Shown piece after piece: positions 4,718 to 27,004 of a DNA stretch of 64,000 nt. The stretch is taken from assembly GCA_041684965.1 (NCBI GenBank), contig JAWLGR010000017.1, positions 28,599-92,598 of the forward strand, given 5' to 3'. The notes beneath the pieces were generated by a model that was not told the DNA's origin, made no database searches, and saw only the letters and a program-made list of their open reading frames with translations. Both the position numbers and the translations under genes were made by a program. Within the stretch, counting starts at the first letter, position 1. Every line of letters starts with the position of its first letter. The DNA is from Mariniphaga sp. (lineage in GTDB: Bacteria > Bacteroidota > Bacteroidia > Bacteroidales > Prolixibacteraceae).

Positions 4718-7492
4718 TTATAATTGAACATTCAAAATAGTTTTCTTGTCAAGATTCACAGTTTCAGTTTTCTCTGTGCCTCCTTTGGTTACTTTAATGG
4801 TGTAGGGAGTAAAAAACTCTTCCTGATACTGTGATTTTTTTGTCACCTCGAGCTCTTTGCCTTCCGGATTCCATTCCATGGGTCTTATGATGCTTTGAAC
4901 CAAAGGGACAGAAACGGTTCCCTCAGAACCTGAATTTCCTGAAAATACTTCATTTCCTGCTTTGTCGGAAATGGTAACAACAGCCTCTTCAGCTGTATTC
5001 ACCGTCAGAGTCCATTTAACACGATAATCGCTTTGCGATAATGTATTGGTCCAATATACATCATCGTATCTTGCCCCTCCAATAAATTCACAGTCGAGCA
5101 ATCCATGATTGAACAACGAACGGTGGCCATCAAATTCAAAAGTATGGTATTTGGGATGGTCTTCCAGCTTAATAATCCTGCATTCAATAAACTGATGGTT
5201 GCTTCCCTGTCCGTAATCATCTCCAAACCGTACATTACAGATATTGGAAATCAAATCATTGTTTTTATAAAACAGGGGAAGATGTGTTGAGCGGTCATTG
5301 TATGCACCTTGTGTATCCACACAGGCTGCTTTACGCACCTTATCATCCTGGGCCATAATTTTTATGATGGAATTTTTGCAAACAAGGTTTTTAACTGAAT
5401 AATCGGAATAAAACTCTGTTCCTCTCATCTCAACATCACCCCTGCACCTTCCAAGGATTACATTATCTGAATAAGTAAGATTATCCCTTTGCTGACCTCC
5501 ACTGCTGTAATTCGTGAGACGCAATCCGGCAAGTACATCCTGCTCTCCCCAGGTCTCTATCAGCCTTCTGCCCTTGTTCGGTCTTTCAATCATTGTAGTG
5601 ATGCTTTCCATATGAATGAAATTGTGATGAGCATTGAGGTTGGCAGTAGCCCATAATATACCACAGCCATAATATCCGGTCAGAAAGATGTTATTATTGT
5701 ATACCTGTGCATCGCGCTGATGTGGCTGAATAGCAAACGAATTTACCACCCAGCTGTCTACATACACTTCATTATCATAAATATTCTGTGCAATATTCAA
5801 ACCATTTTGCCGGGTACGTTTTATCAGATTGTGATGGATTTGAATCTCATTATTATCATGATTCAGGTCACCGGTTCCAGATCCCACAAATCCCATTGAC
5901 CGGGCCCCTCCGGCGCCATGCCTGCTGAACATTTGGGTTCCCTTATCCAGGCACACATTATGATGGATGTTAAATTTGCCAAAAGCATTTTCAAAACGCA
6001 TCCCCCAGGTCTGGTGCCAACGGTATTCAACAGTTATACCGGCAATTTCAACATCTTCATACCAGGCAAGTTCAATGTTGTTAAATCCTTTTCCCATATT
6101 GTTGTAGAGTATATCTTGCCTTTCCTTCTCCGGATTCAGCATATTTTCTGCAGCATAATAATCTGTATTGTTCTCAGCGCTCCCTTGTTTCAGGATCCCG
6201 TTATAAATTTTTAAACCTGTCTGCTTTTCTCTGCTGCCTTTACGCCTGATTCCAACACCCGACTTTTCCAGTACTGCATGGTTAAGATCCTCAATCAACT
6301 CATTGCCATGAGTAATCGTATGACCTCCAAGATCGAGCGTGATATTATTTGCGCGAATTTCAAATGCAGTGCGATCAGCATTTATATCTTCTGTTACAAT
6401 ATAAACTGCATTCTCCTGATCCAACAAGTAAGGTGGAGAACCTAAATTACCGGGAATATAAACTGCGCCTGAAATGCTTTTCGTGGTAAATGTATAATCT
6501 GGTGATTCTGATACATTCCCGCGCTCATCAAAGGATACCATCCGGTAATGATAAGTTGTGTTGTTTTCCAGTCCTTTCAGATAGTGCAAATGAATATAAA
6601 AATACCTCTCAGGCATTTCTGTCCTTTTCCCATAAGCCGTGGTGGTTCCATATTCAATGTAGCTTTTGGCCGGAAGATTTGTTTTCCATGAAACGGAGGC
6701 TGAACTTTCAGAAATATAATCCCACCTGCTTCCTTCTTTTACTTCCAGCCTGTCTCCAAATGTTTCATACACGAGCGGATCAATTTCAGCCCCGTAATGA
6801 GTTAGGCAAAACTGATTGAACAAATTATAGAGGTCTTCCGAATCAACATTGACTGTTAACTCACCGAACGCTTTCGCTATCGAATCGGCCCGTGCTCTTT
6901 TTAAATCAGAAATTAATCCTTCATAATCGAGATTGATTACACCCCCCTCTATTTTGATACCTCTGCCGGCAACCAGCTGATCCTGCTTGTTGTTCCACAA
7001 AGATACATCTGAATTTGTAATGCCACCGGAAGCTGAAGCTTCAAAAACAGGGTCCTGCTCAGCAACTGTGGTTAAAGAAGTTTCAGCCGTTTTTGCATAA
7101 AGCGCATAAGGCACACTTAATAACTGACTTGTTCCCTCAATGGTGTAGTTTTCATAACCGTTGAGATCCGTTCTGATTTTCAGATAATAAGGACCTTCGC
7201 TCCAGTTAATATCTTTAAAACCTGGCCGCCACCATGATTTGGTTCCTGAACCGATTTCAAAACCGATAACTCCGTTGCCATCGGTAGTGGATTTATGGGT
7301 TTCAGTAAAAACAACCGGCCCATCTTCCGAACCCTGGGAAATACTGACTTCTATACCAACAGTTGAATTTGCGATTAAATGATTATCGTTGTTTCGGATA
7401 ACCGACTGCCATTTGATATTTTGCGGTACCTGCGCCCATATAACCACTGCTAAAAGGAAGGCGGTTAAAGTTGTAATAAATTTCTGCATCAT
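4718..7492 (-). CDS. surface/secreted protein: N-terminal stalk module + FN3-like domain + right-handed parallel beta-helix + C-terminal beta-sandwich
   Basis: 924 aa with a signal peptide. The N-terminal ~190 aa are shared with the ORFs at 51331 and 53456 (KSWWRPGFKDINWS, LLSVPYALYAKTAET, DPVFEASASGGITNSD..WNNKQ). An FN3-like segment follows (SVSWKTNLPAKSYIEYGTTTAYG...TTYHYRMVSFD). Repeated NN/HHN turn motifs are typical of beta-helix proteins. It is a paralog of 58931-61099. Confidence 0.6.
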   Translation of the reverse strand: MMQKFITTLTAFLLAVVIWAQVPQNIKWQSVIRNNDNHLIANSTVGIEVSISQGSEDGPVVFTETHKSTTDGNGVIGFEIGSGTKSWWRPGFKDINWSEGPYYLKIRTDLNGYENYTIEGTSQLLSVPYALYAKTAETSLTTVAEQDPVFEASASGGITNSDVSLWNNKQDQLVAGRGIKIEGGVINLDYEGLISDLKRARADSIAKAFGELTVNVDSEDLYNLFNQFCLTHYGAEIDPLVYETFGDRLEVKEGSRWDYISESSASVSWKTNLPAKSYIEYGTTTAYGKRTEMPERYFYIHLHYLKGLENNTTYHYRMVSFDERGNVSESPDYTFTTKSISGAVYIPGNLGSPPYLLDQENAVYIVTEDINADRTAFEIRANNITLDLGGHTITHGNELIEDLNHAVLEKSGVGIRRKGSREKQTGLKIYNGILKQGSAENNTDYYAAENMLNPEKERQDILYNNMGKGFNNIELAWYEDVEIAGITVEYRWHQTWGMRFENAFGKFNIHHNVCLDKGTQMFSRHGAGGARSMGFVGSGTGDLNHDNNEIQIHHNLIKRTRQNGLNIAQNIYDNEVYVDSWVVNSFAIQPHQRDAQVYNNNIFLTGYYGCGILWATANLNAHHNFIHMESITTMIERPNKGRRLIETWGEQDVLAGLRLTNYSSGGQQRDNLTYSDNVILGRCRGDVEMRGTEFYSDYSVKNLVCKNSIIKIMAQDDKVRKAACVDTQGAYNDRSTHLPLFYKNNDLISNICNVRFGDDYGQGSNHQFIECRIIKLEDHPKYHTFEFDGHRSLFNHGLLDCEFIGGARYDDVYWTNTLSQSDYRVKWTLTVNTAEEAVVTISDKAGNEVFSGNSGSEGTVSVPLVQSIIRPMEWNPEGKELEVTKKSQYQEEFFTPYTIKVTKGGTEKTETVNLDKKTILNVQL

Positions 7493-7519: not shown

Positions 7520-9271
7520 TTAATGTTTGTTTTCAATAACAGGCAATACAATACAGGAGGGATACTTTTCATTGTGAAAAACCACTTGTTCTGCCTTAAC
7601 CATTGATGTTTCGTTTGCGAAACAGGTACCTGTATTCAGGTTTCTGTCGAACCGGGGAAACGAACTGCTTGAAATTTCAACCCTGATTTGATGCCCCGCC
7701 TTAAATAAATTGCTTGTTGCCCACAAATCAATTTCGTATTCATATACTTCGCCCGGGTTGATATTATTTGGCGTTTCACCGGCAATACGATAACTTGCTC
7801 TTATAATCCCTTCACAAAGCCGGATTGCCCTGCCATCGGGATAAACATCAACAAGTTTTGCTGTAAAGTCAGTGTTTATTGCAGAGCTTGAAGCATACAG
7901 AATAACTTTAACAGGTCCTGTAACCTCCAAATCCTCTTTCAATGCCGGGGTAGAATAAACCAGAACATCTTTACGCATTTCTATAGAAGATTGGTCCCAG
8001 GGCCCCATTTCCTCTTTTGAAACTACCGGATTGGCAGGATTGTAAGTAAATTTATCAGCCGGTTCATTTTTTGCTTTTACCAAACTTAGACTGCCATCAC
8101 CATTTAATGTATTGGCATTGCCTCCGCTATGGAAGTAATATTTTTGATAATCTGTCCGGGCCAGTGGCCATTCATTCTCAAAACGCCATTTATTGGCTCC
8201 CATCACAAATATTTTAACCGGTGGTTCTTCCATAATCCCATTATTCATATCTTTTAACTGACTATCGAACCACCGCAGTTGAAATTCTCTGTTATTGAAA
8301 GCTGCATCTTCACCAAAATCGATATCGCCAACCTGTTGCCTGCCCCAATTATGAAGCCATGGGCCAATAAGCAATTTTTGTTTTTTTCGGATTTCAGGAG
8401 CAATATCATCACCTGTCATAAATAAGTAATTATCAATTGTATTTCCAAGAAGAATATCAAACCATCCGCCAATATTGCAGATTGATGCATCAATTTTAAA
8501 ATAGTTGTTTCCTACCTGTGTGGCCTCCCAAAACTTATCACGCACAGGATGTGAAAGCCAGTCACGTAAAAAAGGAATTCTCCAGCCCATTTCTTTATCC
8601 TGTTCAATCAATGGAAGCGATTGGAGAACTTTTTGCATTCTGTTTTGCACAGTATCAGCCGGGATAATGAAAGGTGTTGTCATTTCAATGCTCCAGGGCA
8701 CAAACAATCCAAGCCGGAAGGCCCCGTTTTGATATACTGCACTGTAAAAGTCTGAAAAAGTAACTGCCGGAATCATGGTTTTTAGCAAAGGTTGTTGATA
8801 AGGAGCAGGCATCCATTGTGTGAATCCCACATAGGAGCCACCAGTTGTACCTAATTTCCCATTACACCAGTTTTGCTGACCGACCCAATTCTGCATATCG
8901 CAGCCATCTTCTGTTTCATGCTGCATTGCATAAAATAATCCTTCTGACTCATACCTGCCCCGGGTATCCTGAACAATGTATACATACCCCCGCTGTGCAT
9001 AAAAATGCCCGTCTCTATTTCCTGTCCCTCCGTTACCGTAAGGGCTGCGGATTAATATCACAGGAAAACTACCTGCTGTATCCGGCCGATAAATATTGGT
9101 TGAAAGCCTGATTCCATCACGCATTTCTACTTTTACATCCAACTCCTCAATGACCTTATATACAGGCATTGATTCTCCGGCGGTTAACTTTTCCTGAGCT
9201 GTTAGCCGACCGGCAGTTAAAAGCAGTAATAAAACAGAAAGTAAAAGACTTTGAAATTGAACGCTTTTCAT
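7520..9271 (-). CDS. CocE/NonD family hydrolase (peptidase S15, Xaa-Pro dipeptidyl-peptidase-like)
   Basis: 583 aa with a signal peptide. Motifs: VKVEMRDGIRLSTNIYRPD..FPVILIRSPYG, the nucleophile motif GGSYVGFTQW, and a C-terminal jelly-roll (EISSSSFPRFDRNLNTG). Confidence 0.85.
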   Translation of the reverse strand: MKSVQFQSLLLSVLLLLLTAGRLTAQEKLTAGESMPVYKVIEELDVKVEMRDGIRLSTNIYRPDTAGSFPVILIRSPYGNGGTGNRDGHFYAQRGYVYIVQDTRGRYESEGLFYAMQHETEDGCDMQNWVGQQNWCNGKLGTTGGSYVGFTQWMPAPYQQPLLKTMIPAVTFSDFYSAVYQNGAFRLGLFVPWSIEMTTPFIIPADTVQNRMQKVLQSLPLIEQDKEMGWRIPFLRDWLSHPVRDKFWEATQVGNNYFKIDASICNIGGWFDILLGNTIDNYLFMTGDDIAPEIRKKQKLLIGPWLHNWGRQQVGDIDFGEDAAFNNREFQLRWFDSQLKDMNNGIMEEPPVKIFVMGANKWRFENEWPLARTDYQKYYFHSGGNANTLNGDGSLSLVKAKNEPADKFTYNPANPVVSKEEMGPWDQSSIEMRKDVLVYSTPALKEDLEVTGPVKVILYASSSAINTDFTAKLVDVYPDGRAIRLCEGIIRASYRIAGETPNNINPGEVYEYEIDLWATSNLFKAGHQIRVEISSSSFPRFDRNLNTGTCFANETSMVKAEQVVFHNEKYPSCIVLPVIENKH

Positions 9272-9314: not shown

Positions 9315-10427
9315 TCAAACTACCTCTTTCTCCATTCCTTCAAGAAAATCATTATCAAAGTCAGCCCCTATTCCAGGTGTATCCGGAAGCACCCATTTTC
9401 CTTTTCCTTTATATTGTATTCCTCCGGTTACCGGATCTTCGGCATGTGCAAAGGAAGAATCGATATCAAAATGGACGATGTTATTTCTGGCCGCAACCAG
9501 GTGTGTTAATGCTGTTAAGGCATAACGGCTTTCCGACATGCAACCTACCTGTGATTTAATTCCTGCTGCTTCACCAACAGCTATAATTTTTAAAGCATTA
9601 TGAATTCCTCCTGTTTTTGACAATTTAATATTGAAGTAATCACATGCCCCCATACTGGCAAGCCTGAAAGCATCTTTATGATCAAATACGGATTCATCGG
9701 CCATAATTGAAATCGGACTGTTATTTCTGACCCTTACAAGATCACGGTTGTTCCAGTGTGGAATTGGCTCTTCACAATGCTCAATATCAAACTTTTCAAG
9801 GGCATTAAGCGTGCGAATGGCTGTAACGGTATCCCATCCCTGGTTGGCGTCTATCCGTATAGGGATATCATATCCTACGGCGTCACGGATTGCTTTAATC
9901 CGGGCAATATCCTCTTTTTCGCCAGTTCCTAATTTCACTTTAATTGCTGGATATCCTTCTTCTTTGTATAATAGTGCTTCTTTAGCCATTTTTTCAGGTG
10001 TACCGAGATAAACAGTCATATCGGTATATATTTCACGGGAATTTCCACCGCCAAATAATTGATACAGCGGCATTTCAGCCTTTTTGGCCAATATGTCATA
10101 CAGTGCCATATCGAATGCACTTTTAATTGTATAATTACCTGCAATTTCCCGATCGATTTCATGCAGCCTGTCTTCTATGGCAAGTGGGTTCCGGCCTATT
10201 AAAACTGAAGCAAGATGTTTGGCTATTTCAAATTCAGATGCCTGTATTTCACCTACTATTTGTCTTAAGGGACTCGCCTCACCAATCCCTGTTAACCCTG
10301 AATCGGTGTGGATTTTAATTAACAGGTTCTCTGTTTTATAAATGGCACCCAACGAAATAAAGACAGGCTCCTTTAATGCAATATTTAATTTTATAACTTC
10401 AATTTTTTCTATGCTGATACGGCTCAT
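9315..10427 (-). CDS. dipeptide epimerase (L-Ala-D/L-Glu epimerase type; enolase superfamily, MLE subgroup)
   Basis: 370 aa with no signal peptide. It has KVKLG (the KxK pair), IRIDANQGW, CEEP and IMADES as metal ligands, and the second catalytic Lys in FNIKLSKTGG. Confidence 0.85.
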   Translation of the reverse strand: MSRISIEKIEVIKLNIALKEPVFISLGAIYKTENLLIKIHTDSGLTGIGEASPLRQIVGEIQASEFEIAKHLASVLIGRNPLAIEDRLHEIDREIAGNYTIKSAFDMALYDILAKKAEMPLYQLFGGGNSREIYTDMTVYLGTPEKMAKEALLYKEEGYPAIKVKLGTGEKEDIARIKAIRDAVGYDIPIRIDANQGWDTVTAIRTLNALEKFDIEHCEEPIPHWNNRDLVRVRNNSPISIMADESVFDHKDAFRLASMGACDYFNIKLSKTGGIHNALKIIAVGEAAGIKSQVGCMSESRYALTALTHLVAARNNIVHFDIDSSFAHAEDPVTGGIQYKGKGKWVLPDTPGIGADFDNDFLEGMEKEVV

Positions 10428-10459
10428 TTTAATTGATTTTTAGTATTATATTTATTTCA

Positions 10460-11650
10460 TTAAAACATAGACTGAAGTAAAATTCCCATCAGATATCCTA
10501 TGTAATTTCCAATAACATACCCCCATACACCAAGCATTAGTGATGAAAAAATCAGGTTGTGCCAATTTTTGGAAATTGCAACAGCAACGCCATTCATTGG
10601 GCCTCCGGAAGTAATGATTGCAGCAAGAGCAAGCTCCTCCAGCTCATATTTGAACCATTTCCCAAGAATAAATGTAACCAGAAAGTTAAAAAAAAGAATG
10701 ATGGTACAAAACAAAATCATTACTGGCGCTTCGAGTATTACCTGCGATATGCTTGCAGGAAGACCAATCATCACAAAAAACAAAAAGATGAAAAAGGTAC
10801 CCAATTCTTCATTACCGGCAATATTTTTGGCAGTCTTTGGCATAACTATGGGAAACAATACAGAAAGGGTTGTAAGTATCAGGTACTGTTGTCCCAATAA
10901 CATTTTAACGATAACAGGCATATGTCCGGCATTGAAATAGCTGCTGATCTTTACTGAAAGAAGGGAGATCAAAAAAGCTACCGATAAGGATTTACCAATA
11001 TCAATCAGTCCAATAGGTTTGGGTTTCCAGTAATCACTGTTTACCTTACCATTATTTGTTCCGGTAATTTCAATTGATTTGTCTGTTACCGGGAAATACC
11101 GTCTGACGATTGCCATTCCGGGTAAAGTTATCAGTAGCAGAAAGTACAGAATCATTATTCCGTTATCGGCTACAAGTGTTGCATTCACAAGATCAGGCGG
11201 CGGGTTAAACATTGCAACTACGGATACAAAATTCACGGAACCACCGATATAACTTGCAGTCATTGCCGGGCCTATCAATTCAAGATCATTTATAAAAGTA
11301 TGCAATGCTGCCACTGCAACAATACTTCCTATAACAGTACCCAACGCACTTAAATGAAATGCACCTGCAAAACGTCCGGTTTCTTTGAAAATTTTCCGGA
11401 TATCCGTTTTCATTAAAAGAAGTGGAATAACCAGGGGCACTATATAATTCCAAACTATGTCGTAAGAAGGTGACGCTGCCGGCATCAGACCAATATTTGA
11501 TACCAGCATTCCGGCAACTATTGCAACAGCAGCACCTGTAATTCTCTTTACAAACAGGAATCTTTGCTCAAGATACAAGCTTAAGGCGGCAGTACCTATT
11601 AAAAATGTCCAGATAACCCAGTGGTCATCCGGTGAAATTATGCTATTCAT
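10460..11650 (-). CDS. polytopic inner-membrane protein, DUF819-like putative permease
   Basis: 396 aa, hydrophobic throughout (about 10-12 predicted helices by eye). Its start overlaps the upstream stop by 8 nt. The DUF819 assignment comes from my recollection of similar proteins next to dipeptide epimerases. Confidence 0.5.
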   Translation of the reverse strand: MNSIISPDDHWVIWTFLIGTAALSLYLEQRFLFVKRITGAAVAIVAGMLVSNIGLMPAASPSYDIVWNYIVPLVIPLLLMKTDIRKIFKETGRFAGAFHLSALGTVIGSIVAVAALHTFINDLELIGPAMTASYIGGSVNFVSVVAMFNPPPDLVNATLVADNGIMILYFLLLITLPGMAIVRRYFPVTDKSIEITGTNNGKVNSDYWKPKPIGLIDIGKSLSVAFLISLLSVKISSYFNAGHMPVIVKMLLGQQYLILTTLSVLFPIVMPKTAKNIAGNEELGTFFIFLFFVMIGLPASISQVILEAPVMILFCTIILFFNFLVTFILGKWFKYELEELALAAIITSGGPMNGVAVAISKNWHNLIFSSLMLGVWGYVIGNYIGYLMGILLQSMF

Positions 11651-13520
11651 CCAGTTCTATATAAGCCTGCGGGTATTCTCCAAAGACCTGGCCGTTGAAT
11701 TCAATATCTGCTGTAACTATATGAATTCCTTTCCCCGCAAAATTTTCGACACGAATCCTTACAGGAAAATCTTTCGTTTCTCCCGGATTCAGAGTATAAT
11801 TAATTATTTCATTTTCAAAAGCAATATCCCCATAACTTTTTAATTTAAAATGTCCCGTTACAGGGTTTTTCGTATAATTCTTAAGACGAATATTTTTCTT
11901 CACTTCCTGCCCCGATTTTATCTTCGTACGAACAGGATAAAATGAAACCCAGTAGGGATCAAATCCCAAATCCTGGATGGGAGGTGATAAAAGAGCCCGG
12001 ATTGCATCGGTTGTTACTACCGACCAGTTGTAAAATTCGTATTTATCATCCGGAGCAACAGCAAAAACATTTGAATGAGCTGGTAAACAAATGTAAGGAC
12101 TGGCTTTTAGAAACGATTGTGCAGTTTTAATTATGCCGGAATTAAGTGACAGTCCATTGTAGCAATGAATGGGGCTGCGAATGCGTCCGTCCCTGGTATA
12201 TCCGGTGCCATCAGCAACCAGATAAAAGTCCAGGCCATCAACCTTTGCATATAGCCCCATCTGCTGTTCGGTATGAACAGGATGATGGTACACCTGAAAA
12301 GAATACCCTCCCCATTCAAATGTTTCATTCTCCTTTAATACCCGGTCTATTTCAATGCTTTGTCCTGTCCAGCAGGTTGTGGGGAAACGTTCCGGATGTT
12401 CAAGGTATTCAGCCAGACCTTCCCAAACCCAAACTTCCGCACCTTCTGCATCAGCAATTGCTTCAATACCGTCAACATGATCGTAATGCCAGTGGCTGGG
12501 AATAATCACATCAACACGGTCGAAACCAAATTTTGCCTTAGCTTCTTTGAGCCTTTCCAGGGAAAATTCTTTTCCGCAATCAAAGAGCAGAGCTTTTCCA
12601 TTTTCTGAAACAACAATTTGGGTGGTACTTCCACCATCTTGTATTACATGTTCAGAAACCTGCACTAACTGGCTCCAGTTCCACCGGCCAGCCCTGTTAT
12701 AATTAAATGCATCTTTTACCCTAAGTAAGCGGGCAGTTAATAAATCAATGTGTTCCTGCGGGCTCTCTATGATTTCTCCGTGAGAAGGCAACAAAATATC
12801 TGCACCCGTTTTTGTGATCTTATTAAGTGACACCAGGGAAGTATCTACACCAGGATTTTGAAGATAAACCCACTGCAAACTGTAAAAGTCCCGGACATAG
12901 CCCCCATTCATAATTAAATCCCCGGTAAAACATAATTTCTGACCGTTTACTTCAACTAAAAATGAATTGCTTCCCTGTGTATGTCCAAGTGTTGAAATTG
13001 TTGTTATAGTGAATTCTTTCCATCTGAAAACTTCTCCATGTGTAAGTTTTTTATCAATCCCCGGGGTTTTAAATGGTGCCAATCGGGTTCCCCAGCCAGG
13101 CAATTCTCCATTCAGCAGGAATTTTTCAGGTAATGAAAAGGGAGCATTCTCTTCGGGATTACCCAGCAAACCGGCTTCAGAAGCCCCAATAGCAATCTTA
13201 GCTCCTGCCTGTTTTAACATAAAGCTGCCCAAACATTGATCGCGGTGATAGTGGGTATGAAAAACCCATTCCACGTTTTCCACCCCAATATCCGGCAGGT
13301 AGTCCTTAATCTTTCCGGAACCCGCATCAATTAATAAGGCCGTGGTACCGGATTTTAAAACATACACATTACAAATATCCTGAAAAAGATATACGTCAGG
13401 AGCAATTTTTTTAAAATTGGATTCCAACAAGGAATTTTCAGCTGACTTCACCCCTGGCAGAAAACCAGACAGCAAAACAGTATAGGTAATGACTTTGATA
13501 AAAATACCCCTGAAATTCAT
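11643..13520 (-). CDS. secreted protein with two metallo-beta-lactamase-fold domains and a C-terminal Ig-like domain
   Basis: 625 aa with a signal peptide. The first MBL motif is THYHRDQ (HxHxDQ, with the last His replaced). The second, SHWHYDHVDG, is the canonical HxHxDH. The start lies 1 nt after the upstream stop. Confidence 0.75.
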   Translation of the reverse strand: MNFRGIFIKVITYTVLLSGFLPGVKSAENSLLESNFKKIAPDVYLFQDICNVYVLKSGTTALLIDAGSGKIKDYLPDIGVENVEWVFHTHYHRDQCLGSFMLKQAGAKIAIGASEAGLLGNPEENAPFSLPEKFLLNGELPGWGTRLAPFKTPGIDKKLTHGEVFRWKEFTITTISTLGHTQGSNSFLVEVNGQKLCFTGDLIMNGGYVRDFYSLQWVYLQNPGVDTSLVSLNKITKTGADILLPSHGEIIESPQEHIDLLTARLLRVKDAFNYNRAGRWNWSQLVQVSEHVIQDGGSTTQIVVSENGKALLFDCGKEFSLERLKEAKAKFGFDRVDVIIPSHWHYDHVDGIEAIADAEGAEVWVWEGLAEYLEHPERFPTTCWTGQSIEIDRVLKENETFEWGGYSFQVYHHPVHTEQQMGLYAKVDGLDFYLVADGTGYTRDGRIRSPIHCYNGLSLNSGIIKTAQSFLKASPYICLPAHSNVFAVAPDDKYEFYNWSVVTTDAIRALLSPPIQDLGFDPYWVSFYPVRTKIKSGQEVKKNIRLKNYTKNPVTGHFKLKSYGDIAFENEIINYTLNPGETKDFPVRIRVENFAGKGIHIVTADIEFNGQVFGEYPQAYIELDE

Positions 13521-13521
13521 G

Positions 13522-14619
13522 TTACCTTGCTAAAACAACTTTATGCTCCGGACCGGTAACCCCGGCAAAGTTCACTGCCCTGAATGCCAGTTCGTACTTT
13601 TGATCCTCCAGGTCAATTTCAATTTCGGGGCGAACCGTTTCCCATTTATCTCCCGGTATTTTTCTCATCTGGTATTCTTTAAAACCAGGTGTATCCGAAA
13701 CCAGTTTAATTTTTGCAGTACCTCCGTCTATCGCAACATGCGATGCAATGGTGTTGGGAGTAAAATAAATCTCATCAATATCTTCAACTACCCGCAAACT
13801 TTCCGGGCTCCCATAAATCCAATGCGGTCTTTTCCCCCTAATCCATGTATTGTTTTTGAAATAATCATCTCCATACATGATTAGCAATACATTGTGTTTG
13901 GGCCATTGGGTAAACATATCGGTATAAGCGTCCCAGGTAATCCAGGTGTAAGTCTGGGCAAATTCCTCTTTCGACATATCCACCTCATCGTCGTATTCCA
14001 GTGGCTTTCTGTCAACTCCTTTTACCAATTGTATATCGGCAGCACTATTCTTCAGGTACTCATTTCTGATTTCCACTGCTGAAAGCGGTACCTCATCCTT
14101 TTCAAAATGGTGATCGTATTTTGCATCTGCCAGGAACCATTTATTGAACGTATTGCTCCAGATTTCATTTACCCCGTGATGTTCAAACCGGGTTCCCAGG
14201 ACACCGGGGCCTGCTCCCAACGACCTTGTAATATGCCCCATAGAGGTCAAAACAGCATTTTGTACCCGCATATAATGACCGCAATGATACCCCTGACCTT
14301 CCATTGCATAATCCAGGATGCGTTCAACATTCCCCTCACCAGGATAAGGATCACCATAGTCCTCAATAGGTATAACCGATTTAATCCAATGCCTGAGCTT
14401 TAGAATCCTTCTGAATTCATCCGTTTCTCCGGTAACAACTGTATCCAGCTGATATTTTGAAATTAATTGTGCTGCTTGTGGTGAGGTCATATCCTCAAAT
14501 GCTTCAAAAGCTTTATTTGGTTTGTAAACCGGATTCTCAACCTCAACCAACCGATAGTTACTTTTTTCACAACTGAACAAAAGAATAACAATAACTCCAA
14601 GAATTAATCTTTGTTTCAT
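13522..14619 (-). CDS. transglutaminase-fold (papain-like Cys-His-Asp) lipoprotein, paralog 1
   Basis: 365 aa with a lipobox (LLFSCEKS). Core: GQGYHCGHYMRVQNAVLTSMGHITRSLGAGPG...HHGVNEIWSNTFNKWFLADAKYDHHFEKD. This matches the Cys / His / Asp spacing of the transglutaminase core. A ~110-aa beta-sandwich-like tail follows. Confidence 0.65.
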   Translation of the reverse strand: MKQRLILGVIVILLFSCEKSNYRLVEVENPVYKPNKAFEAFEDMTSPQAAQLISKYQLDTVVTGETDEFRRILKLRHWIKSVIPIEDYGDPYPGEGNVERILDYAMEGQGYHCGHYMRVQNAVLTSMGHITRSLGAGPGVLGTRFEHHGVNEIWSNTFNKWFLADAKYDHHFEKDEVPLSAVEIRNEYLKNSAADIQLVKGVDRKPLEYDDEVDMSKEEFAQTYTWITWDAYTDMFTQWPKHNVLLIMYGDDYFKNNTWIRGKRPHWIYGSPESLRVVEDIDEIYFTPNTIASHVAIDGGTAKIKLVSDTPGFKEYQMRKIPGDKWETVRPEIEIDLEDQKYELAFRAVNFAGVTGPEHKVVLAR

Positions 14620-14685
14620 ATTTAATTTTCAAATTAAAGTTGACATAATTTTTAACAAATATTAAAATCCCAGCTTAAATCTGCT

Positions 14686-15807
14686 TTATTTACTGGCAAT
14701 AACAACCCTGTGCTCAGGTCCTGTAACACCGGCCAGATTAACTGCCCTAAACAAAAGATCATAATTGGGATTTTTTAATTTCAGCTCCAACAGGGAATCT
14801 GCCCGGACCCATTCCTCCTCCGGATTTTTTTTCATTTGATATTCTTTCAATCCGGGGGTATTTGAAGTTAACTTTATCCGGGCATTGTTTTTTTCAATTT
14901 GCACCTCCGACCGGATTGTATTTGGTGAAAAATAAATTTCATTCATCTCGCTTGTCAGCCTCAGATAATCAGGAGCATTATATATCCATGCCGGTTTACC
15001 CCCCCTGTACCAGGTATTACTTTTATAATAATCATCCTCATACATAATTAAAAGAGTCTTTTGTTTCGGCCAACTGGTAAAACGGTCGTTATAGGCATCC
15101 CATGTTACCCAGGTATAGGTTTGGATAAATTCAGTTTTTGGTCTTTCCATTTCCTCATCAAAATCAATAGCAATCCGTTTGGGTCCTTTTACCATAAGCA
15201 CGTCAGCACCTTCATTTTTAAGGTATTCATTTCTGACTTCGAGAGCCGAAAGCGGAATGCCGTCCTTCTCAAAATGATGATCGTACTTGGCATCGGAAAG
15301 AAACCATTTATTGTACTGGTTCAACCATATTTCATTTATACCATGATGCCCGTCCCTGACATCCTTTACACCCGGGCCTGCACCAAGAGTTCGTGTAACA
15401 TATCCAAAGGATCCCATAATTGCACTCTGCACTCTCATAAAATACCCGCAATCATACCCTTGTCCCTGAAGCGCATAATCCAGAATCCGTTCAACATTTC
15501 CTTCTCCGGGATAAAATGCTGCGTAATCCTTTATAGCAATAACAGATTTAATCCAGTGCCTCAGCAGCAAGATTCTTTTGAATTCATCTGTTTCCCCCTT
15601 AAATATTGTATCAATCTGAAATTTGGTTATCAGATGTTCTGTATCCGGAGTGGCCATTTCATCAAACGCTTCAAAAACTTTATTTGGTTTATATTCAGGG
15701 TTCTCAACTTCTGTTACATAATATTCTTTATCGCTGCAGCCTGCCAAAAAAATCACAACGATACCCGTTATAATTTTCATCATTATTCTATTATTTCCTG
15801 TATTCAT
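14686..15807 (-). CDS. transglutaminase-fold lipoprotein, paralog 2
   Basis: 373 aa with a lipobox (FLAGCSDK); the true start is perhaps at the internal MMK. It carries the same core (GQGYDCGYFMRVQSAIM...HHGINEIWLNQYNKWFLSDAKYDHHFEKD). Confidence 0.65.
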   Translation of the reverse strand: MNTGNNRIMMKIITGIVVIFLAGCSDKEYYVTEVENPEYKPNKVFEAFDEMATPDTEHLITKFQIDTIFKGETDEFKRILLLRHWIKSVIAIKDYAAFYPGEGNVERILDYALQGQGYDCGYFMRVQSAIMGSFGYVTRTLGAGPGVKDVRDGHHGINEIWLNQYNKWFLSDAKYDHHFEKDGIPLSALEVRNEYLKNEGADVLMVKGPKRIAIDFDEEMERPKTEFIQTYTWVTWDAYNDRFTSWPKQKTLLIMYEDDYYKSNTWYRGGKPAWIYNAPDYLRLTSEMNEIYFSPNTIRSEVQIEKNNARIKLTSNTPGLKEYQMKKNPEEEWVRADSLLELKLKNPNYDLLFRAVNLAGVTGPEHRVVIASK

Positions 15808-15824
15808 ATTAGTTGCTATTTAGT

Positions 15825-16928
15825 TTATTTATTGCCAATAATAATTCTGTGTTCAGGACCGGACACTTCAGCAAGATTCACTGTACGAAATGCAAATTCA
15901 TATCCCGACTCCTTTAATTCCATCTCAAATTTCGGTTCAACCCGCGACCAATTGCCATTGGGTTTATTTTTCATCTGATATTCTTTCAGATTTGGGGTGT
16001 CAGAGGTGAGCTCTACCGACAGTTTATTCCCTTTAATTTTTACCTCCGATGCAATCGTATTTGGCGTCCATTCAATCGCATCCCTGTCCTGAATTAATTT
16101 CCGGTATTCCGGCTTATCATAAGTCCAATGAGGTTTCCCTCCCCAAATCCAGGTGTTGTTCCTAAAAAATTCATCTTCATACATGATATTCATTTCACGA
16201 TGCTCCGGCCACACGGTGTACATATCATTGTTACCATGGAAACCAATCCAGGTATATGTCTGGGCGCTCCGTTCCTTTTTCGTTCCCGTTTCCGGATCTT
16301 CGTCAATAACAACCCGGCCGGGGCCTTTTACTTTGACAATATCTGCGGCCTTATTCTTTAAGTATTCCTCCCGCACCTCGAGGGAGGATAACGGAATGCC
16401 ATTTTTCTCAAAATGATGGTCGTATTTGGCATCCGACAAAAACCATTTGTTGTATCCGTTCAGCCAGATTTCATTGATCCCGTGGTGTCCGTCGGGTCCC
16501 CCCTTTACCCCAGGACCTGCTCCCAGCGTTCGGGATACGTATCCGTATGCATTCATAATGGCATTCTGAATCTGCATGTAATGACCGCAATGATAACCCT
16601 GCCCTTCCATAGCCAAATCCAGCATCTGTTCAACTTCATTGTTTCCCGGATAAGGATCGCCATGATCGTCAATTTTTACTTTCGATTTGATCCAATGCCG
16701 AAGCATGAGAATGCGTTTCAATTCATCGGTTTCTCCATGAAAGATAGTATCCAGCTGGTATTTTTCAATCAACCTGCCGAATTTTGGAGAGGTGAGATCT
16801 TCGAAGGAATTAAAAACAGTATTGGGTTTATATTGAGGATTTTCAACAGCTATTTGGGTATATTCATTCTTCCCGCACCCAATCAATAACAACAGAAAAA
16901 ATATATAGAATAACTTTTTAGCTTTCAT
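15825..16928 (-). CDS. transglutaminase-fold lipoprotein, paralog 3
   Basis: 367 aa with a lipobox (LLIGCGKN). It carries the same core (GQGYHCGHYMQIQNAIM...HHGINEIWLNGYNKWFLSDAKYDHHFEKN). Confidence 0.65.
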   Translation of the reverse strand: MKAKKLFYIFFLLLLIGCGKNEYTQIAVENPQYKPNTVFNSFEDLTSPKFGRLIEKYQLDTIFHGETDELKRILMLRHWIKSKVKIDDHGDPYPGNNEVEQMLDLAMEGQGYHCGHYMQIQNAIMNAYGYVSRTLGAGPGVKGGPDGHHGINEIWLNGYNKWFLSDAKYDHHFEKNGIPLSSLEVREEYLKNKAADIVKVKGPGRVVIDEDPETGTKKERSAQTYTWIGFHGNNDMYTVWPEHREMNIMYEDEFFRNNTWIWGGKPHWTYDKPEYRKLIQDRDAIEWTPNTIASEVKIKGNKLSVELTSDTPNLKEYQMKNKPNGNWSRVEPKFEMELKESGYEFAFRTVNLAEVSGPEHRIIIGNK

Positions 16929-17052: not shown

Positions 17053-18216
17053 ATGATAATGACACCAAAAGAGCGTTTTATTACAGCACTGAACAGAAAT
17101 AAACCCGACAGGTTACCGGTTACTACCCATCATGTTATGCCCTCCTTTCTAAAAAACTATATGAATGGAATATCGGATCAGGATTTTTTTAACACTTTTG
17201 GGCTCGACCCCATAAACTGGGTAATGGCTTATGATTGTTCTCCTGGAAATGGGGAATATTTCGATCCGGAACACCTTGAAATGGGATTTCTTGAAGCACG
17301 AAGGGTGGTATCGGATAACTGGCAGGTTAAAATAGAAAAGCTTGACGGGCTCTCCTATCCGACCGAACGGTTCAACATTATTACCCCCAAAAAAACCTTA
17401 TCCATGGTAATGCAATCCGATCAGCATTCAGCGTGGATAAAAGAGCGGTTGATAAAGGAGAAATCAGATATTGATGTGGTTGCAAAATATATGACCAAGC
17501 CAAAATGCAACGTCGGAGAAATAAACAAGGCAGCTGAAGAGTACGGCACCCGGGGTTTATTACGTGGTCATATTATGGCTTTTGAAGGATTTGGACAACC
17601 GGGGTGCTGGCAGGACGCGGCTTGTTTATATGGAATTGAAAACCTGATAATGGCAACTTTTGAAGACCCCACGTGGGTACACCAATTCCTTGCAATTCTT
17701 CAGGAAAGAAAAAAATTCTACATCGAATCGATGAAAGGTGCCAGATACGATTTGCTCGAACTCGGTGGTGGTGATGCCTCCACAACAGTTATCTCTCCCG
17801 ATATTTTTAATGAGTTTGTTGCACCTTACGATTCTGTCCTGATAGAAACGGCTCATCAGGCAGGGCAGAGAATTGTTTATCATACATGCGGCGGGATGAT
17901 GCCGATACTGGAAGACATTGCTGCAATGAAACCCGATGCCATGGAAACTTTTACTCCCGTTGATATGGGAGCTGATGTTATACTGGGCGAGGCAAAAAAA
18001 AGAATTGGGGACAAAGTATGTATGATTGGCGGATTTGATCAATTCCATTTTTTTAACGGATGCAGCGAAGCAGATGTAAGGAAAGAAGTACGGCGTTGTT
18101 TTAACGAAGCCGGCACTGATGGCGGATTTATCCTGTCGCCCTCCGACCATTTCTTTGATGCCGAACTGAACCTCATTGAAGCATTCGCTGATGAGGCACG
18201 AAAATGTACGTATTAA
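17053..18216 (+). CDS. uroporphyrinogen decarboxylase (URO-D)-like / MtaA-CmuA-like family protein
   Basis: 387 aa, cytoplasmic. Motifs: MTPKERFITALNRNKPDRLPVTTH at the N-terminus, LGGGDASTTVISPDIFNEFVAPY, and IVYHTCGGMMPILEDIAAMKPDAMETF. Confidence 0.65.
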   Translation: MIMTPKERFITALNRNKPDRLPVTTHHVMPSFLKNYMNGISDQDFFNTFGLDPINWVMAYDCSPGNGEYFDPEHLEMGFLEARRVVSDNWQVKIEKLDGLSYPTERFNIITPKKTLSMVMQSDQHSAWIKERLIKEKSDIDVVAKYMTKPKCNVGEINKAAEEYGTRGLLRGHIMAFEGFGQPGCWQDAACLYGIENLIMATFEDPTWVHQFLAILQERKKFYIESMKGARYDLLELGGGDASTTVISPDIFNEFVAPYDSVLIETAHQAGQRIVYHTCGGMMPILEDIAAMKPDAMETFTPVDMGADVILGEAKKRIGDKVCMIGGFDQFHFFNGCSEADVRKEVRRCFNEAGTDGGFILSPSDHFFDAELNLIEAFADEARKCTY

Positions 18217-18296
18217 TACCAATAAGCAATTCTTTCAAGTACTAATTTAAAAACCATAATCGGGCAAACTGGATGGGTTTTAAAAGTTTTTTGTAA

Positions 18297-18908
18297 GTGC
18301 AAAAAAAATCAGGTAACAAGCTGTTCAAATACCTTTATAAGTTTCATATTTATGGAGGACTCTTCAGCTCTGCATTCTTTATAATTATCGGGATAACTTC
18401 TATTAATTACAACCACCCCAACCTGTTAAAAAAAGAGAAATTCAGAGAAAAAACCTATTATAAACAGTTTACTTTTAAATCAGACAGTACCGATATAATT
18501 GTGCAACACGCTACCGACAGTCTGAAACTTTTTGGTCACCGCCCCTGGTGGATGCAGGGGAGAGATAAGGAAAATAATTTTTATTTTCAGATAATCAGAC
18601 CGGGAAAACAATACCTGATAGTAGTTCTGGAAGATGAAAAGCAGTTAAAAGTTACAGAACGATCGATGGGAATTATCCATGCCCTTTCAGGAATGCATGT
18701 TGCATCAGGCGGATTGCCAAAATCAACAGTATTTTCAATCTGGTCAGTCTATTCCCACGCTGCAGTTTTGACGGGACTCATTTCATTATTTCTTAGTATC
18801 TATTTCTGGTTGAAAAAATCAAAACTCAAAAGGTGGCAATGGATAGGAACCGGCAGTGCTTTTGCAATTTCTTTAACATTCATACTTTATATATGGCTAA
18901 TCGGTTAA
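18297..18908 (+). CDS. PepSY-associated-TM-like membrane protein
   Basis: 203 aa with a GTG start. It has an N-terminal helix (KFHIYGGLFSSAFFIIIGITSI), a soluble middle part, and C-terminal helices (LHVASGG..WSVYSHAAVLTGLISLFLSIYFWLKK). Confidence 0.45.
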   Translation: MQKKSGNKLFKYLYKFHIYGGLFSSAFFIIIGITSINYNHPNLLKKEKFREKTYYKQFTFKSDSTDIIVQHATDSLKLFGHRPWWMQGRDKENNFYFQIIRPGKQYLIVVLEDEKQLKVTERSMGIIHALSGMHVASGGLPKSTVFSIWSVYSHAAVLTGLISLFLSIYFWLKKSKLKRWQWIGTGSAFAISLTFILYIWLIG

Positions 18909-19492
18909 AATTCAGGAAAATATTAAGAAAAATCCACCTGGCTTCAAGTATTGTTATTTTTGCCTATCTGTTGATGTATTTTGTTACTGCTTTTATTTTA
19001 ATCAGGCACGATTGGTTTCCCCATGCCAGTCCTGTAACAACAAGACAAACAGTCGATTTTAAAATTGAATCCAAATCAACCGATTTTACATCACTGACTC
19101 CGGCAATAAAAAAACATTTAGATATCACAGGCAGGACAGATATTCCATTTCAAAGAAAAGACGGTTGCTGGGTTTACAATGTTTATCGACCAGGAATAAG
19201 CCATCATATTGTCCTGAATCAGGAACAAGAAAAGCTTACAGTGTCAACAACAGAACAACTCACTGTAGCAAGAGTTTCGAGCCGGTTGCATTTGATGCGG
19301 TTTTACAAGGGAAGCATTAAATATTACATCTGGGCCTTTTTTTACGATTTATCTGCCATTTCGATGCTTTTATTTGGACTATCCGGAATTCTTATCTGGT
19401 TGAAAATGAAAAAAGCATACAGAAATGGCTTGTATTATCTTCTTTCCGGAACAGCAATTTCGGTGGCAGTGTTGGTTTATTTACTGATTTGA
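18893..19492 (+). CDS. PepSY-associated-TM-like membrane protein (paralog of the previous gene)
   Basis: I chose the internal ATG at 18893 (MANRLKFRKILRKIHLASSIVIFAYLLMYF). This overlaps the upstream gene by 16 nt. The topology is the same, including SRLHLMRFYKG...LSGILIWLKMKK. Confidence 0.45.
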   Translation: MANRLKFRKILRKIHLASSIVIFAYLLMYFVTAFILIRHDWFPHASPVTTRQTVDFKIESKSTDFTSLTPAIKKHLDITGRTDIPFQRKDGCWVYNVYRPGISHHIVLNQEQEKLTVSTTEQLTVARVSSRLHLMRFYKGSIKYYIWAFFYDLSAISMLLFGLSGILIWLKMKKAYRNGLYYLLSGTAISVAVLVYLLI

Positions 19493-20160: not shown

Positions 20161-21594
20161 TCATTCGCTGTAGGAATGTTTTACGGATTCAACATGAGCC
20201 TCACTCTCCCGGAGGTTTTCTTCAATAGCTTCCAGCGATAATCCTTTGGTTTCAGGAATTTTCTTTAAAATAAACGGTACGGGGATACAACACAGGGCAA
20301 ATATAAAAAACGTGCCTGAAGGAGTAAGGTTCTCCAGCATCCATGGTACAACCTGTCCGATTATTGCAGTTCCAACCCATAAAGCAAGTGTTGCAACCGA
20401 CATGGCACGTCCACGAATCCGGGTTGGGTAAATCTCAGACAACAATACCCATATAACAGGACCGTAACCTATAGCAAAAGAGGTAATGAAAGTCAGGATA
20501 AACAACATCAACAGAAAACCGGTGGTTTGCCCCACCATAAACAGTATGCCTACAATAACCAGTGAAACAAACATACCGCTGACACCTCCCAGCATAAGTT
20601 TTTTTCTGCCGTACCTGTCAATGGTCATAATAGCATAAATGGTAGCAAGCATATTTACCAAACCTATAATTACCTGACCACCAAATGCGTCGCTGAGTTT
20701 CAATCCGGCCTCTTCCATAATACGTGGTCCGTAATAGATAATTGCATTTATGCCTGTAAACTGTGAAAGAATTCCCAATCCAATACCGGCAAACAGTGTT
20801 ACTTTCGTGCTTTTAGAAAACAAAGACTTCCAGGAGCTGTTTTTCTCTTTCAAAATTGCTGCTCTGATTGATTCCATCTGTGATTGAATAGTATCAGGTG
20901 GATTGATTCTTGCCAAGACACTTCTTGCTTTTCCGCTTTTATTTTTTGCCACCAACCATCTTGGGCTGGATGGAACAAAAAACATCAGTATTAAGAATAA
21001 CAATGCCGGCAAGATTTCACTTCCAAACATTGCCCTCCAGGCTTCATTGATTAATATCGGGTTTAAAAATCTATTCGCTTCAACCATCCCGGTCGTTTCA
21101 CTAATTCTTAAAAAAAACGCATTGGCAAAATAAGCACTTACAATACCAATTGTAATTGCAAACTGATAGATAGCAACCATTCGTCCACGGATATTTGCCG
21201 GTGATACTTCCGAGATATAAAGCGGGGAAACCATAGAGGCAATACCTACTCCCATTCCTCCAAGCAATCTGTACAGAATCAATTCTGTATAGGAAACACT
21301 GAAAGCACATCCGATAGCTGAAACTGAAAACAAAAAACCAGATACAATCAATGAACTCTTTCTTCCAAATTTATCAGACATTGCCCCGGCAGTACTAACG
21401 CCAATTATACAGCCTACCAATGCCGAACTGACGAACCAGCCTTCCATTGCAGTACTCAGGTTAAATCCTGATTTTACAAAGCTGATGGTACCAGAAATTA
21501 CTGCAGTATCATAGCCAAACAAAAATCCGCCCATTGCGGCTGTGAATGATATAAAGAATAAGTAGCCCTGGTTGTAGTTTCGATTTTTGGTCAT
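20161..21594 (-). CDS. MFS sugar porter family transporter (sugar:H+ symporter)
   Basis: 477 aa. Motifs: GGFLFGYDTAVISG, GRKSSL, VPSSPRWLVAKNK, RYGRKKLML, and PETKGLSLEAIE at the C-terminus. Confidence 0.9.
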   Translation of the reverse strand: MTKNRNYNQGYLFFISFTAAMGGFLFGYDTAVISGTISFVKSGFNLSTAMEGWFVSSALVGCIIGVSTAGAMSDKFGRKSSLIVSGFLFSVSAIGCAFSVSYTELILYRLLGGMGVGIASMVSPLYISEVSPANIRGRMVAIYQFAITIGIVSAYFANAFFLRISETTGMVEANRFLNPILINEAWRAMFGSEILPALLFLILMFFVPSSPRWLVAKNKSGKARSVLARINPPDTIQSQMESIRAAILKEKNSSWKSLFSKSTKVTLFAGIGLGILSQFTGINAIIYYGPRIMEEAGLKLSDAFGGQVIIGLVNMLATIYAIMTIDRYGRKKLMLGGVSGMFVSLVIVGILFMVGQTTGFLLMLFILTFITSFAIGYGPVIWVLLSEIYPTRIRGRAMSVATLALWVGTAIIGQVVPWMLENLTPSGTFFIFALCCIPVPFILKKIPETKGLSLEAIEENLRESEAHVESVKHSYSE

Positions 21595-21606
21595 AGTTTA
21601 TCAAAT

Positions 21607-26990: not shown

Positions 26991-27004
26991 TAAAAATAAC
27001 AAAA

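Follow-up and report, generated by a model that had tools for sequence, protein, structure and literature searches.

Why should genes of a peptide-processing type stand inside a locus that degrades polysaccharides? The question is raised by a stretch of 64,000 nucleotides (nt; the whole stretch analysed, called the window here) from Mariniphaga sp., a member of the Prolixibacteraceae (Bacteroidota), in which ten minus-strand open reading frames (ORFs) span positions 16928 to 769. In the direction of transcription, the gaps between them are 17, 66, 1, -8, 32, 43, 27, 10 and 75 nt, and a SusC gene starts at 451, 317 nt past the last gene of the array. The array opens with three transglutaminase-fold (TG) lipoprotein genes, continues with metallo-beta-lactamase (MBL), transporter, epimerase and hydrolase genes, and ends with genes for glycan-cleaving enzymes. 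The original prediction, which took this array for a peptide module hard-wired into a polysaccharide-lyase operon, had the genes, gaps and distance to SusC exactly right. Our best reading is that the locus belongs to a polysaccharide utilization locus (PUL) whose target is an amino-sugar/uronic-acid polymer of a microbial envelope or matrix with acyl or peptidyl substituents. The genes of the array and the adjacent SusC are listed below.

1-451, minus strand: N-terminus of a SusC/RagA-type TonB-dependent transporter, with a signal peptide, a CarboxypepD_reg-like segment and the start of a Plug domain; the ATG is at 451 and the gene runs off the window
769-2211, minus strand: secreted TIM-barrel (GH42-like) plus DUF4832 glycosidase, with Pfam DUF4832 at 60.6 bits and a partial GH42 match
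2287-4707, minus strand: PL8 polysaccharide lyase with a type IX secretion system (T9SS) C-terminal sorting domain (Lyase_8_N, Lyase_8, Lyase_8_C, Por_Secre_tail)
4718-7492, minus strand: BH, secreted, 924 aa, combining an FN3-like domain (Pur_ac_phosph_N/FN3; Bdello_MAT_N-like N-terminus) with what may be a beta-helix region
7520-9271, minus strand: periplasmic CocE/NonD (S15) serine hydrolase (Peptidase_S15 and PepX_C; TIGR00976)
9315-10427, minus strand: cytoplasmic dipeptide epimerase of the enolase superfamily, MLE subgroup (MR_MLE_N and MR_MLE_C)
10460-11650, minus strand: DUF819 polytopic inner-membrane transporter (Pfam DUF819, 264 bits, full length)
11643-13520, minus strand: MBL2, a periplasmic double MBL-fold hydrolase with a C-terminal Ig-like domain (two Lactamase_B stretches)
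13522-14619, minus strand: TG3, TG-fold lipoprotein paralogue 3, 55% identical to TG1, with lipobox Cys and Cys/His/Asp motifs kept
14686-15807, minus strand: TG2, TG-fold lipoprotein paralogue 2, 55% identical to TG1, with lipobox Cys and Cys/His/Asp motifs kept
15825-16928, minus strand: TG1, TG-fold lipoprotein paralogue 1, a transglutaminase core with a C-terminal beta-sandwich (Transglut_core, 27.9 bits)

Profile searches confirmed the domain labels that had been given to these genes, namely Transglut_core on TG1, two Lactamase_B domains, DUF819, MR_MLE, S15 and PL8. The N-termini predict lipoboxes for the TG proteins and cleavable signal peptides for MBL2, the S15 hydrolase, BH, PL8 and the DUF4832 protein. 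The DUF819 protein is predicted to be polytopic, and the epimerase has no signal peptide.

Gene order in related loci

About 95 related loci, numbered here with the prefix L, were compared: 80 TG-centred loci from species-representative genomes, 3 BH-centred loci from metagenomes and 12 annotated neighbourhoods. Co-occurrence was counted in the 35 TG loci of at least 18 kb, with partners sought within 10 kb of the TG gene. In line with the original prediction, peptide-type genes keep company with glycan-degrading genes in many genomes. In the recurring syntax the TG genes come first, singly or in several copies and frequently with DUF4832 in divergent orientation; MBL2, DUF819, epimerase (MLE) and S15 genes may then follow. 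More than ten independent contigs, at 50-90% protein identity, repeat the order TG(n)-MBL2-DUF819-MLE-S15, a recurrence that exceeds chance. With MBL2 and S15 optional, this order is kept in L006-L009, L018, L019, L023, L039, L045, L059, L061, L087-L090, L094 and L095. DUF819 always lies downstream of a TG gene, directly after it in L004, L009, L011 and L018, and the epimerase gene follows DUF819 in 18 of the 19 DUF819 contigs listed (undetected in L011; a partial match in L004). The MBL2 and DUF819 genes overlap by 8 nt in the window, and equally so among the called genes of L087, L088, L090, L094 and L095.

The partners counted in the 35 long loci were DUF4832 (26), S15 (19, downstream of TG), SusC (18), SusD (17), MLE (13), PfkB (12), an Amidohydro_2 lipoprotein (12), MBL2 (11) and DUF819 (10), together with a DeoR regulator above the AgaR equivalog cutoff in seven. 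In homologous loci, SusC and SusD come next after DUF4832; they flank the same genes in L001-L003, L009, L059 and L084. Judged by gene content, the conserved core is a TG lipoprotein and a putative DUF4832 glycosidase, usually with S15, SusC/D and genes of N-acetylgalactosamine (GalNAc) or galactosamine (GalN) catabolism such as AgaR. The window locus can be classed as a PUL on its adjacent SusC gene (SusD would lie past the window edge), on SusC and SusD together in homologous loci, and on its PL8 and DUF4832 glycoside hydrolase-like enzymes.

The idea of a polysaccharide-lyase operon survives in part. Wiring into a glycan locus stands, but PL8 is not the conserved partner, which is DUF4832: across 83 TG-centred loci, the 10 kb around the TG gene never contained a PL8 gene. 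PL8 neighbours the module only in four close relatives, L087, L088, L089 and L095 (MBL2 66-73% identical). In these four, the BH, PL8 and DUF4832 block persists despite a GDSL insertion (L087), the loss of S15 (L095) and a change between one and three TG genes. BH orthologues come after SusD or S15 in L084, L086, L087, L088 and L095, and a relaxed coverage setting (<50%) turns up BH homologues at locus edges. By this distribution, PL8 and BH are a clade-specific add-on of the glycan locus.

Gene order also bears on a different reading, in which two functions share a neighbourhood and perhaps a transcript. One would be a glycan PUL with TG and S15 de-acylases, the other a separate salvage of free peptidoglycan D-dipeptides by MBL2, DUF819 and the epimerase, with no peptide bound to the glycan. 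The cassette is indeed optional, since DUF819 and the epimerase lie within 10 kb of TG in about 30% of long loci (10/35), and L002 and L003 have TG next to S15 with no cassette. However, wherever the cassette occurs it sits on the TG strand, always directly downstream of TG and with S15 on its other side, and the DUF819-MLE pair comes directly after TG in L004, L009 and L018. Such a fixed position would be hard to account for if the two functions did not share a substrate stream, and we consider two independent functions somewhat unlikely.

The TG-fold lipoproteins

TG1 matches Transglut_core above the cutoff of 23 bits, and TG2 and TG3 have no Pfam match. A fourth paralogue in the window, TG4, is 51-54% identical to TG1-3 and has the triad intact. 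The lipobox Cys is invariant across 38 homologues, as are residues C114, H149 and D166 of TG1, which are shared by all four window paralogues. The motifs KYDHHFEK and QTYTW are likewise invariant and are the family's own. The AlphaFold2 model of TG1 (predicted local distance difference test score, pLDDT, 90.4) matches animal transglutaminases (the animal enzymes TG2 and TG3, and factor XIII) and 3ISR in Foldseek at E-values of about 2e-5 to 1e-4, and its bacterial matches are uncharacterised "putative cysteine proteases" (3ISR, 3KD4). A transglutaminase fold with a Cys-His-Asp set, as originally proposed, is thus supported by the Foldseek matches and the invariant residues.

A comparison with YkfC and PNGase had also been proposed, and it brought out no specific likeness. 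The 50 Foldseek matches in the PDB listed for TG1 contain neither an NlpC/P60 (YkfC-like) nor a PNGase entry; what comes nearest to a PNGase-type transglutaminase fold is XPC/Rad4 at rank 42. The weak fold matches also include the psiM2 pseudomurein endoisopeptidase (rank 31, E 1e-2). A TG profile gave no match to PDB chain sequences, and a fold search of BFVD gave weak matches at superfamily level. Pseudomurein endoisopeptidases PeiP/PeiW and cytoplasmic PNGase share fold and Cys-His-Asp chemistry with the TG family at superfamily level only.

The family is large. A homology search with TG1 listed more than 1244 homologues (E <=0.001; clusters at 90% identity), and an exhaustive profile search returned 1328 representative clusters at 50% identity. 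Some members are natural fusions, in which TG is joined to S15/PepX_C (P0358), to GH67N/GH20b and DUF4838 (P0357, P0441), to an apiosidase-like barrel (P0393), to a Pel9A-like beta-helix (P0403), to CBM6/CBM35 (P0485) or to an F5/8-type-C galactose-binding-like domain (P0492). Taken together, the fusion partners are S15, CBM6/35/32-like modules, and GH-like and beta-helix domains. All three fusion proteins inspected by sequence retain the triad motifs. These fusions are the strongest evidence that the TG family acts on carbohydrates or glycoconjugates, and that it does so jointly with the S15 hydrolase. Taken with gene order, they suggest that the family behaves as a new carbohydrate-active module. 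The fusions also lend weight to the view that glycan de-acylation and dipeptide salvage are separate functions: TG and S15 occur fused as well as adjacent, and the TG fusion partners are all carbohydrate modules, none a peptidase.

Partner enzymes of the glycan branch

The 7520-9271 product had been called an S15 peptidase. The S15 family is correct, but the closest relatives are esterases. The CocE/NonD model TIGR00976 scores 451.7 bits (cutoff 66.3), the nucleophile motif GxSxG is present as GGSYVG from residue 144, and among solved structures the protein is closest to cocaine esterase (1e-104) and to alpha-amino-acid ester hydrolases. Three PepX models score 91, 24 and 23 bits against cutoffs of 642, 711 and 881.

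This assignment matters for the notion of a locus that breaks down mucin-type O-glycoproteins of eukaryotes (alpha-GalNAc on Ser/Thr), with TG proteins as glycopeptidases and S15 as an X-Pro dipeptidyl peptidase. The Pfam name of S15 is indeed X-Pro dipeptidyl peptidase, and families that contain alpha-GalNAc-ases (GH109-like, GH31, GH36-like) occur nearby together with AgaR. Against this, the X-Pro dipeptidyl peptidase models fall far below cutoff, neither a D-dipeptide epimerase nor an Asp/Glu racemase would be needed for eukaryotic proteins, and the lyase genes (PL8, PL11-like) misfit such a substrate. Habitat argues in the same direction: the TG loci come from environmental metagenome-assembled genomes (MAGs) of sediment, wetland, soil and digesters, and there is no gut Bacteroides among the 120 TG1 homologues listed or the 80 TG-centred loci. 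The genera among the matches include Proteiniphilum saccharofermentans and Reichenbachiella genomes, with Draconibacterium and Mariniphaga as MAG labels. Mucin as the target is therefore very improbable.

In the DUF4832 protein, E206 and E301 are invariant among 49 homologues. A clue to its role comes from Pel, an alpha-1,4 GalN/GalNAc polymer. A Streptococcus protein with a TIM barrel and DUF4832, Streptococcus intermedius SIR_1591 of the pel operon, is reported to disperse Pel-held aggregates (PMC12345266; PMC7112168). By description it has the same architecture as the window protein (468 aa, compared with 480 aa here), and its dispersal of Pel aggregates fits the GalNAc/GalN catabolic genes beside Bacteroidota DUF4832 homologues. 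The two differ in setting: SIR_1591 is anchored in the membrane and its operon is a biosynthetic one; the window protein is predicted to be secreted and catabolic. An amphioxus paper that mentions DUF4832 gives no function for the domain.

All three PL8 domains in Pfam, N-terminal helical, central super-sandwich and C-terminal sandwich, are above cutoff in the lyase, and the NCBIfam chondroitinase-AC equivalog model scores 555 bits against a cutoff of 1000. The beta-helix label given to the 4718-7492 product is tentative, drawn from distant paralogy to the 58880-61099 product, whose orthologue gives a sub-threshold Beta_helix match; the protein itself has no Pfam beta-helix match even at E-values up to 1. 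PDB sequence searches with the DUF4832 protein, MBL2 and BH gave weak or generic matches only.

The MBL2, DUF819 and epimerase cassette

The AlphaFold2 model of MBL2 (pLDDT 90.3) has two MBL domains and an Ig-like tail, and in Foldseek it comes closest to subclass B3 MBLs and HARLDQ-motif proteins. The canonical motif of domain 2, H343-W-H345-Y-D347-H348, is invariant in 43 homologues; domain 1 carries a variant HxHxDQ motif, H90-Y-H92-R-D94-Q95. The likeness to B3 enzymes is at fold level only, as the NCBIfam B3 beta-lactamase model scores 78.5 bits against a cutoff of 240. Distant full-length homologues (about 29% identity) occur in Cyclobacterium xiamenense (L091) and in a Promethearchaeota genome (L092). 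The Asgard locus is uninformative. The Cyclobacterium homologue sits in a sulfatase-rich SusC/D PUL, a setting that suggests a glycan role for that protein and is no proof for the window locus.

The epimerase aligns with YkfB and with its best solved relative, the Cytophaga hutchinsonii enzyme of PDB 3Q45 (44% identity, E 3e-89, gap-free alignment), at the catalytic and metal residues K163xK165, D193, E219, D244 and K268. Its D321-I-D323 aligns with FDFD of YkfB and YDFD of 3Q45, a DxD motif that we take to bind the N-terminal ammonium group of the dipeptide. By these motifs, the 9315-10427 product is a bona fide dipeptide epimerase, with its activity predicted. It is not of the YkfB type that had been proposed for it, a type acting on Ala-Glu dipeptides. 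Position 24 of YkfB is an Arg in the 20s loop that binds the Glu side-chain carboxylate. The corresponding residue here is Gly27, and Gly is also found in the Cytophaga and Enterococcus enzymes, so the Ala-Glu assignment is unsupported. NCBIfam Ala-Glu epimerase models score 194 and 102 bits against cutoffs of 500 and 343, and the UniRef name of the Cytophaga enzyme is D-Ala-D/L-Ala epimerase.

With the MBL2 and DUF819 genes overlapping and the epimerase gene next, the cassette can be read as a three-step route of release or trimming, import and epimerization. In L094, which has no S15, BH or PL8, an Asp/Glu racemase family gene (14519-15271) comes directly after the epimerase gene and supports D-amino-acid metabolism in the cassette.

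The original version of the pathway was a PL8-centred operon acting on peptidoglycan or on an amino-acid-amidated uronic-acid polymer, with YkfC-like TG proteins cleaving at gamma-D-Glu and the epimerase converting L-Ala-D/L-Glu. Several observations suit it. Here and in four relatives, PL8 and BH have stayed contiguous with the peptide genes through rearrangements, a thiol amidase that cleaves uronic-acid amides would be chemically sensible, and in nature X-D-amino-acid dipeptides come mainly from peptidoglycan. However, PL8 is absent from all more distant loci that bear the module, the Glu-binding Arg is replaced by Gly, and the 50 listed fold matches include no NlpC/P60 type. The linked sugar catabolism is, moreover, of the GalNAc/GalN type and not of the N-acetylmuramic acid (MurNAc)/N-acetylglucosamine (GlcNAc) type. 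This version is improbable.

Candidate substrates

The clues to the polymer come largely from related loci. AgaS-, GatZ- and aldolase-type genes, PfkB, and GH31- and GH36-like genes lie by the TG locus in L002. The distant locus L090 ends with a GH109_C protein, a LacI regulator and an amidohydrolase. In L084 and L086, a GH20 gene and a fusion of CN_hydrolase with GH20 are found. Together, AgaR, the L002 genes, GH109_C and GH20 point to GalNAc/GalN as the probable sugar. The lyases (PL8 here; PL11-like and weak PL14-like elsewhere) may add a uronic-acid component in some lineages.

The fusion in L084 (11734-14922) encodes a 1062-aa protein with a carbon-nitrogen hydrolase (nitrilase-superfamily amidase) and a GH20 hexosaminidase; it lies beside a tandem Amidohydro_2 protein within a DUF4832/SusCD/BH locus, and is another coupling of amidase and glycosidase.

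Many esterase and amidohydrolase genes neighbour TG loci and point to a heavily substituted polymer. Such genes are typical of glycan de-decoration, and in that respect they also suit a glycan PUL that runs beside an unconnected dipeptide salvage. There is no sulfatase gene in the window, which fits an unsulfated microbial polymer and not an animal glycosaminoglycan. The habitats, the missing sulfatases and the D-amino-acid genes speak against animal chondroitin sulfate and mucin-type glycoproteins alike, and both were rejected as substrates.

Four candidate substrates each fit parts of the evidence: Pel, fungal galactosaminogalactan, glucuronic acid (GlcA)/GalNAc teichuronic acids on peptidoglycan, and methanochondroitin. 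The last is unsulfated, with the repeat [4-beta-GlcA-1,3-GalNAc-1,4-GalNAc]n (PMC12369344). Among these candidates, only the peptidoglycan-linked option explains the D-amino-acid genes.

A proposed pathway

From the observed gene content, fold and motif assignments, gene-order conservation and domain fusions, we infer every catalytic activity, the substrate and the attachment of peptide to glycan in the following scheme. T9SS-secreted PL8, BH and the DUF4832 glycosidase would cut a GalNAc/GalN polymer of microbial envelopes or biofilm matrix, which in the PL8-bearing clade would also contain uronic acid. The four TG lipoproteins would be thiol amidases or esterases, freeing the glycan or its oligosaccharides of acyl, aminoacyl or peptidyl groups, with the CocE/NonD (S15) hydrolase acting in series. 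Periplasmic MBL2 would make or trim a small D-residue-containing peptide, DUF819 would import it, and the cytoplasmic epimerase would turn the C-terminal D-residue into L, after which ordinary peptidases would finish. The sugars would enter through SusC/D and a major facilitator superfamily (MFS) porter into a GalNAc/GalN-type pathway, whose genes lie beside the locus in other genomes.

Several points weigh against this scheme. The cassette is missing within 10 kb of TG in 25 of the 35 long loci, so that the peptide branch would be accessory or encoded elsewhere. The GalNAc/GalN catabolic genes occur in other genomes, outside the window. For Pel, fungal galactosaminogalactan and methanochondroitin, we know of no peptide cargo. 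The Cytophaga epimerase gene stands alone, with no TG, MBL2, DUF819 or S15 neighbour; without shared neighbours, and at only 44% identity, its specificity is not transferable by context. Transcription gives little to lean on. The Bacteroidetes -7 motif TAnnTTTG is absent from all gaps, the TG1 upstream region included. There are no terminator-like hairpins inside any intergenic gap of the ten-gene array, and sigma-70 promoter-like and terminator-like sites are not above shuffled expectation. With these scans at background, co-transcription of the array stays inferred, from spacing and conservation.

Weighing these points, we find the mechanism as a whole half-supported. That the locus is one arm of a SusC/D-linked PUL of Prolixibacteraceae-like Bacteroidota, a glycan-plus-substituent system working as set out above, seems to us evenly poised between holding and failing. 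A bolder form of the same idea would make the TG lipoproteins the founders of a new carbohydrate-active family (amidases or esterases on amino-sugar or uronic-acid polymers) and, with S15 and the cassette, would make the locus the first PUL for a D-amino-acid-bearing, glycopeptide-type envelope polymer. Candidates would then be peptidoglycan-linked teichuronic acid, peptide-bound Pel-like GalN polymers, and archaeal methanochondroitin or pseudomurein in methanogenic habitats. This bolder form is offered tentatively, as possible rather than probable.

Comparison with known systems

The closest general parallel is with the SusC/D PULs of Bacteroidota, including chondroitin and hyaluronan loci with PL8. 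Shared features are SusC/D, lipoproteins at the surface, enzymes secreted to cleave glycans (among them a PL8 with a T9SS tail) and a sugar porter in the inner membrane. Unlike these PULs, the window locus has no sulfatases, and PL8 is dispensable across the family. The constant enzymes are the TG-fold family and the DUF4832 glycosidase, the latter without annotation to a known CAZyme family, and a D-dipeptide cassette is embedded in the locus.

Murein recycling clusters (B. subtilis ykfABCD; E. coli ycjG/mpaA) also place an MLE epimerase beside papain/transglutaminase-superfamily hydrolases and a transporter, and the catalytic and ammonium-binding motifs of their epimerases are kept here. The differences from ykfABCD are Gly for Arg24, a transglutaminase rather than NlpC/P60 fold, DUF819 rather than Dpp/Opp, and the embedding in a SusC/D locus. 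The Cytophaga hutchinsonii epimerase (PDB 3Q45/3Q4D) has the same Gly at the Arg24 position and the same DxD, and differs in its solitary gene and, at 44% identity, perhaps in specificity.

In the literature searched, there was no characterised PUL of this composition, in agreement with the original prediction, and nothing relevant on PULs combined with transglutaminase-like proteins, dipeptide epimerases, galactosaminogalactan, or peptidoglycan or necromass. The TG family, the double MBL, and their combination with the DUF819-epimerase pair appear undescribed in that literature.

Further genes of the window

Beyond the array, other genes of the window have counterparts beside TG genes in other genomes. 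Two such regions lie upstream of TG1.

17053-18216, plus strand: URO-D/MtaA-like gene, divergent from the TG array (Pfam URO-D; MtaA/CmuA family matches below cutoff)
20161-22710, minus strand: TG4 lipoprotein (21607-22710; Transglut_core, 26.9 bits), then an MFS sugar porter (20161-21594; Sugar_tr, 401 bits; TIGR00879 above cutoff)

The URO-D/MtaA-CmuA-like gene, which has no signal peptide, and two PepSY_TM-like membrane genes (17053-19492, plus strand) are divergent from TG1, a position kept in L087 and L088. A URO-D gene adjoins the TG array in L087, L088 and L094, in the last of these ahead of a TG gene, and O-demethylation is one possibility for the role of these genes. The pair of TG4 and the XylE-like MFS sugar porter, which the original prediction had left out, is also found in L088. 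An IS21-type element (IstA-like transposase and IstB ATPase; 25554-27739, plus strand) lies between TG4 and a GH5-like gene (28398-29777), and these two genes are adjacent in L088.

A second group of genes with TG-flanking orthologues elsewhere, at 51304-63296, was likewise absent from that prediction. It includes the following members.

56780-58834, minus strand: 684-aa GH42M-like protein, with weak Pfam hints
58880-61099, plus strand: 739-aa beta-helix-like protein, with orthologues in seven TG loci at 58-64% identity
61131-61943, plus strand: 270-aa PL14-like protein, with weak Pfam hints

Homologues of the 56780-61943 genes, 58-70% identical, adjoin TG genes in L003, L031, L033, L049, L060, L070, L081 and L083. 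Three or four paralogues in the group have sub-threshold PL14 similarity (51304, 53456, 62316).

The remaining features are of other kinds. A HEPN/nucleotidyltransferase pair, toxin-antitoxin-like, lies at 23262-23946 (plus strand). A 233-aa ORF at 29845-30546 (plus strand) matches positions 51-238 of 329 of PF00144 (serine beta-lactamase/penicillin-binding protein-like) and may be truncated. At 31190-46646 (minus strand), two more SusC/SusD pairs are interleaved with three fasciclin-domain proteins in a separate PUL-like array. Two T9SS proteins follow on the plus strand, a 1328-aa cargo protein with a weak lamin-tail-domain match (46856-50842) and a small T9SS-tailed protein (52970-53452).

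Implications

In sediments, soils and digesters, much carbon and nitrogen passes through the turnover of microbial necromass and biofilm matrix, a flux that is still poorly resolved, and PULs for bacterial, fungal and archaeal envelope polymers are scarcely known. The locus exposes a very widespread uncharacterised TG enzyme family with a predicted D-dipeptide import and epimerization cassette wired directly behind it. It also offers a physiological context for orphan dipeptide epimerases of "hydrophobic/Ala-Ala" specificity. TG1-4, MBL2, DUF819 and the epimerase are concrete candidates, and the cultured genera that carry homologues would allow the use of decorated amino-sugar polymers by Bacteroidota to be studied.

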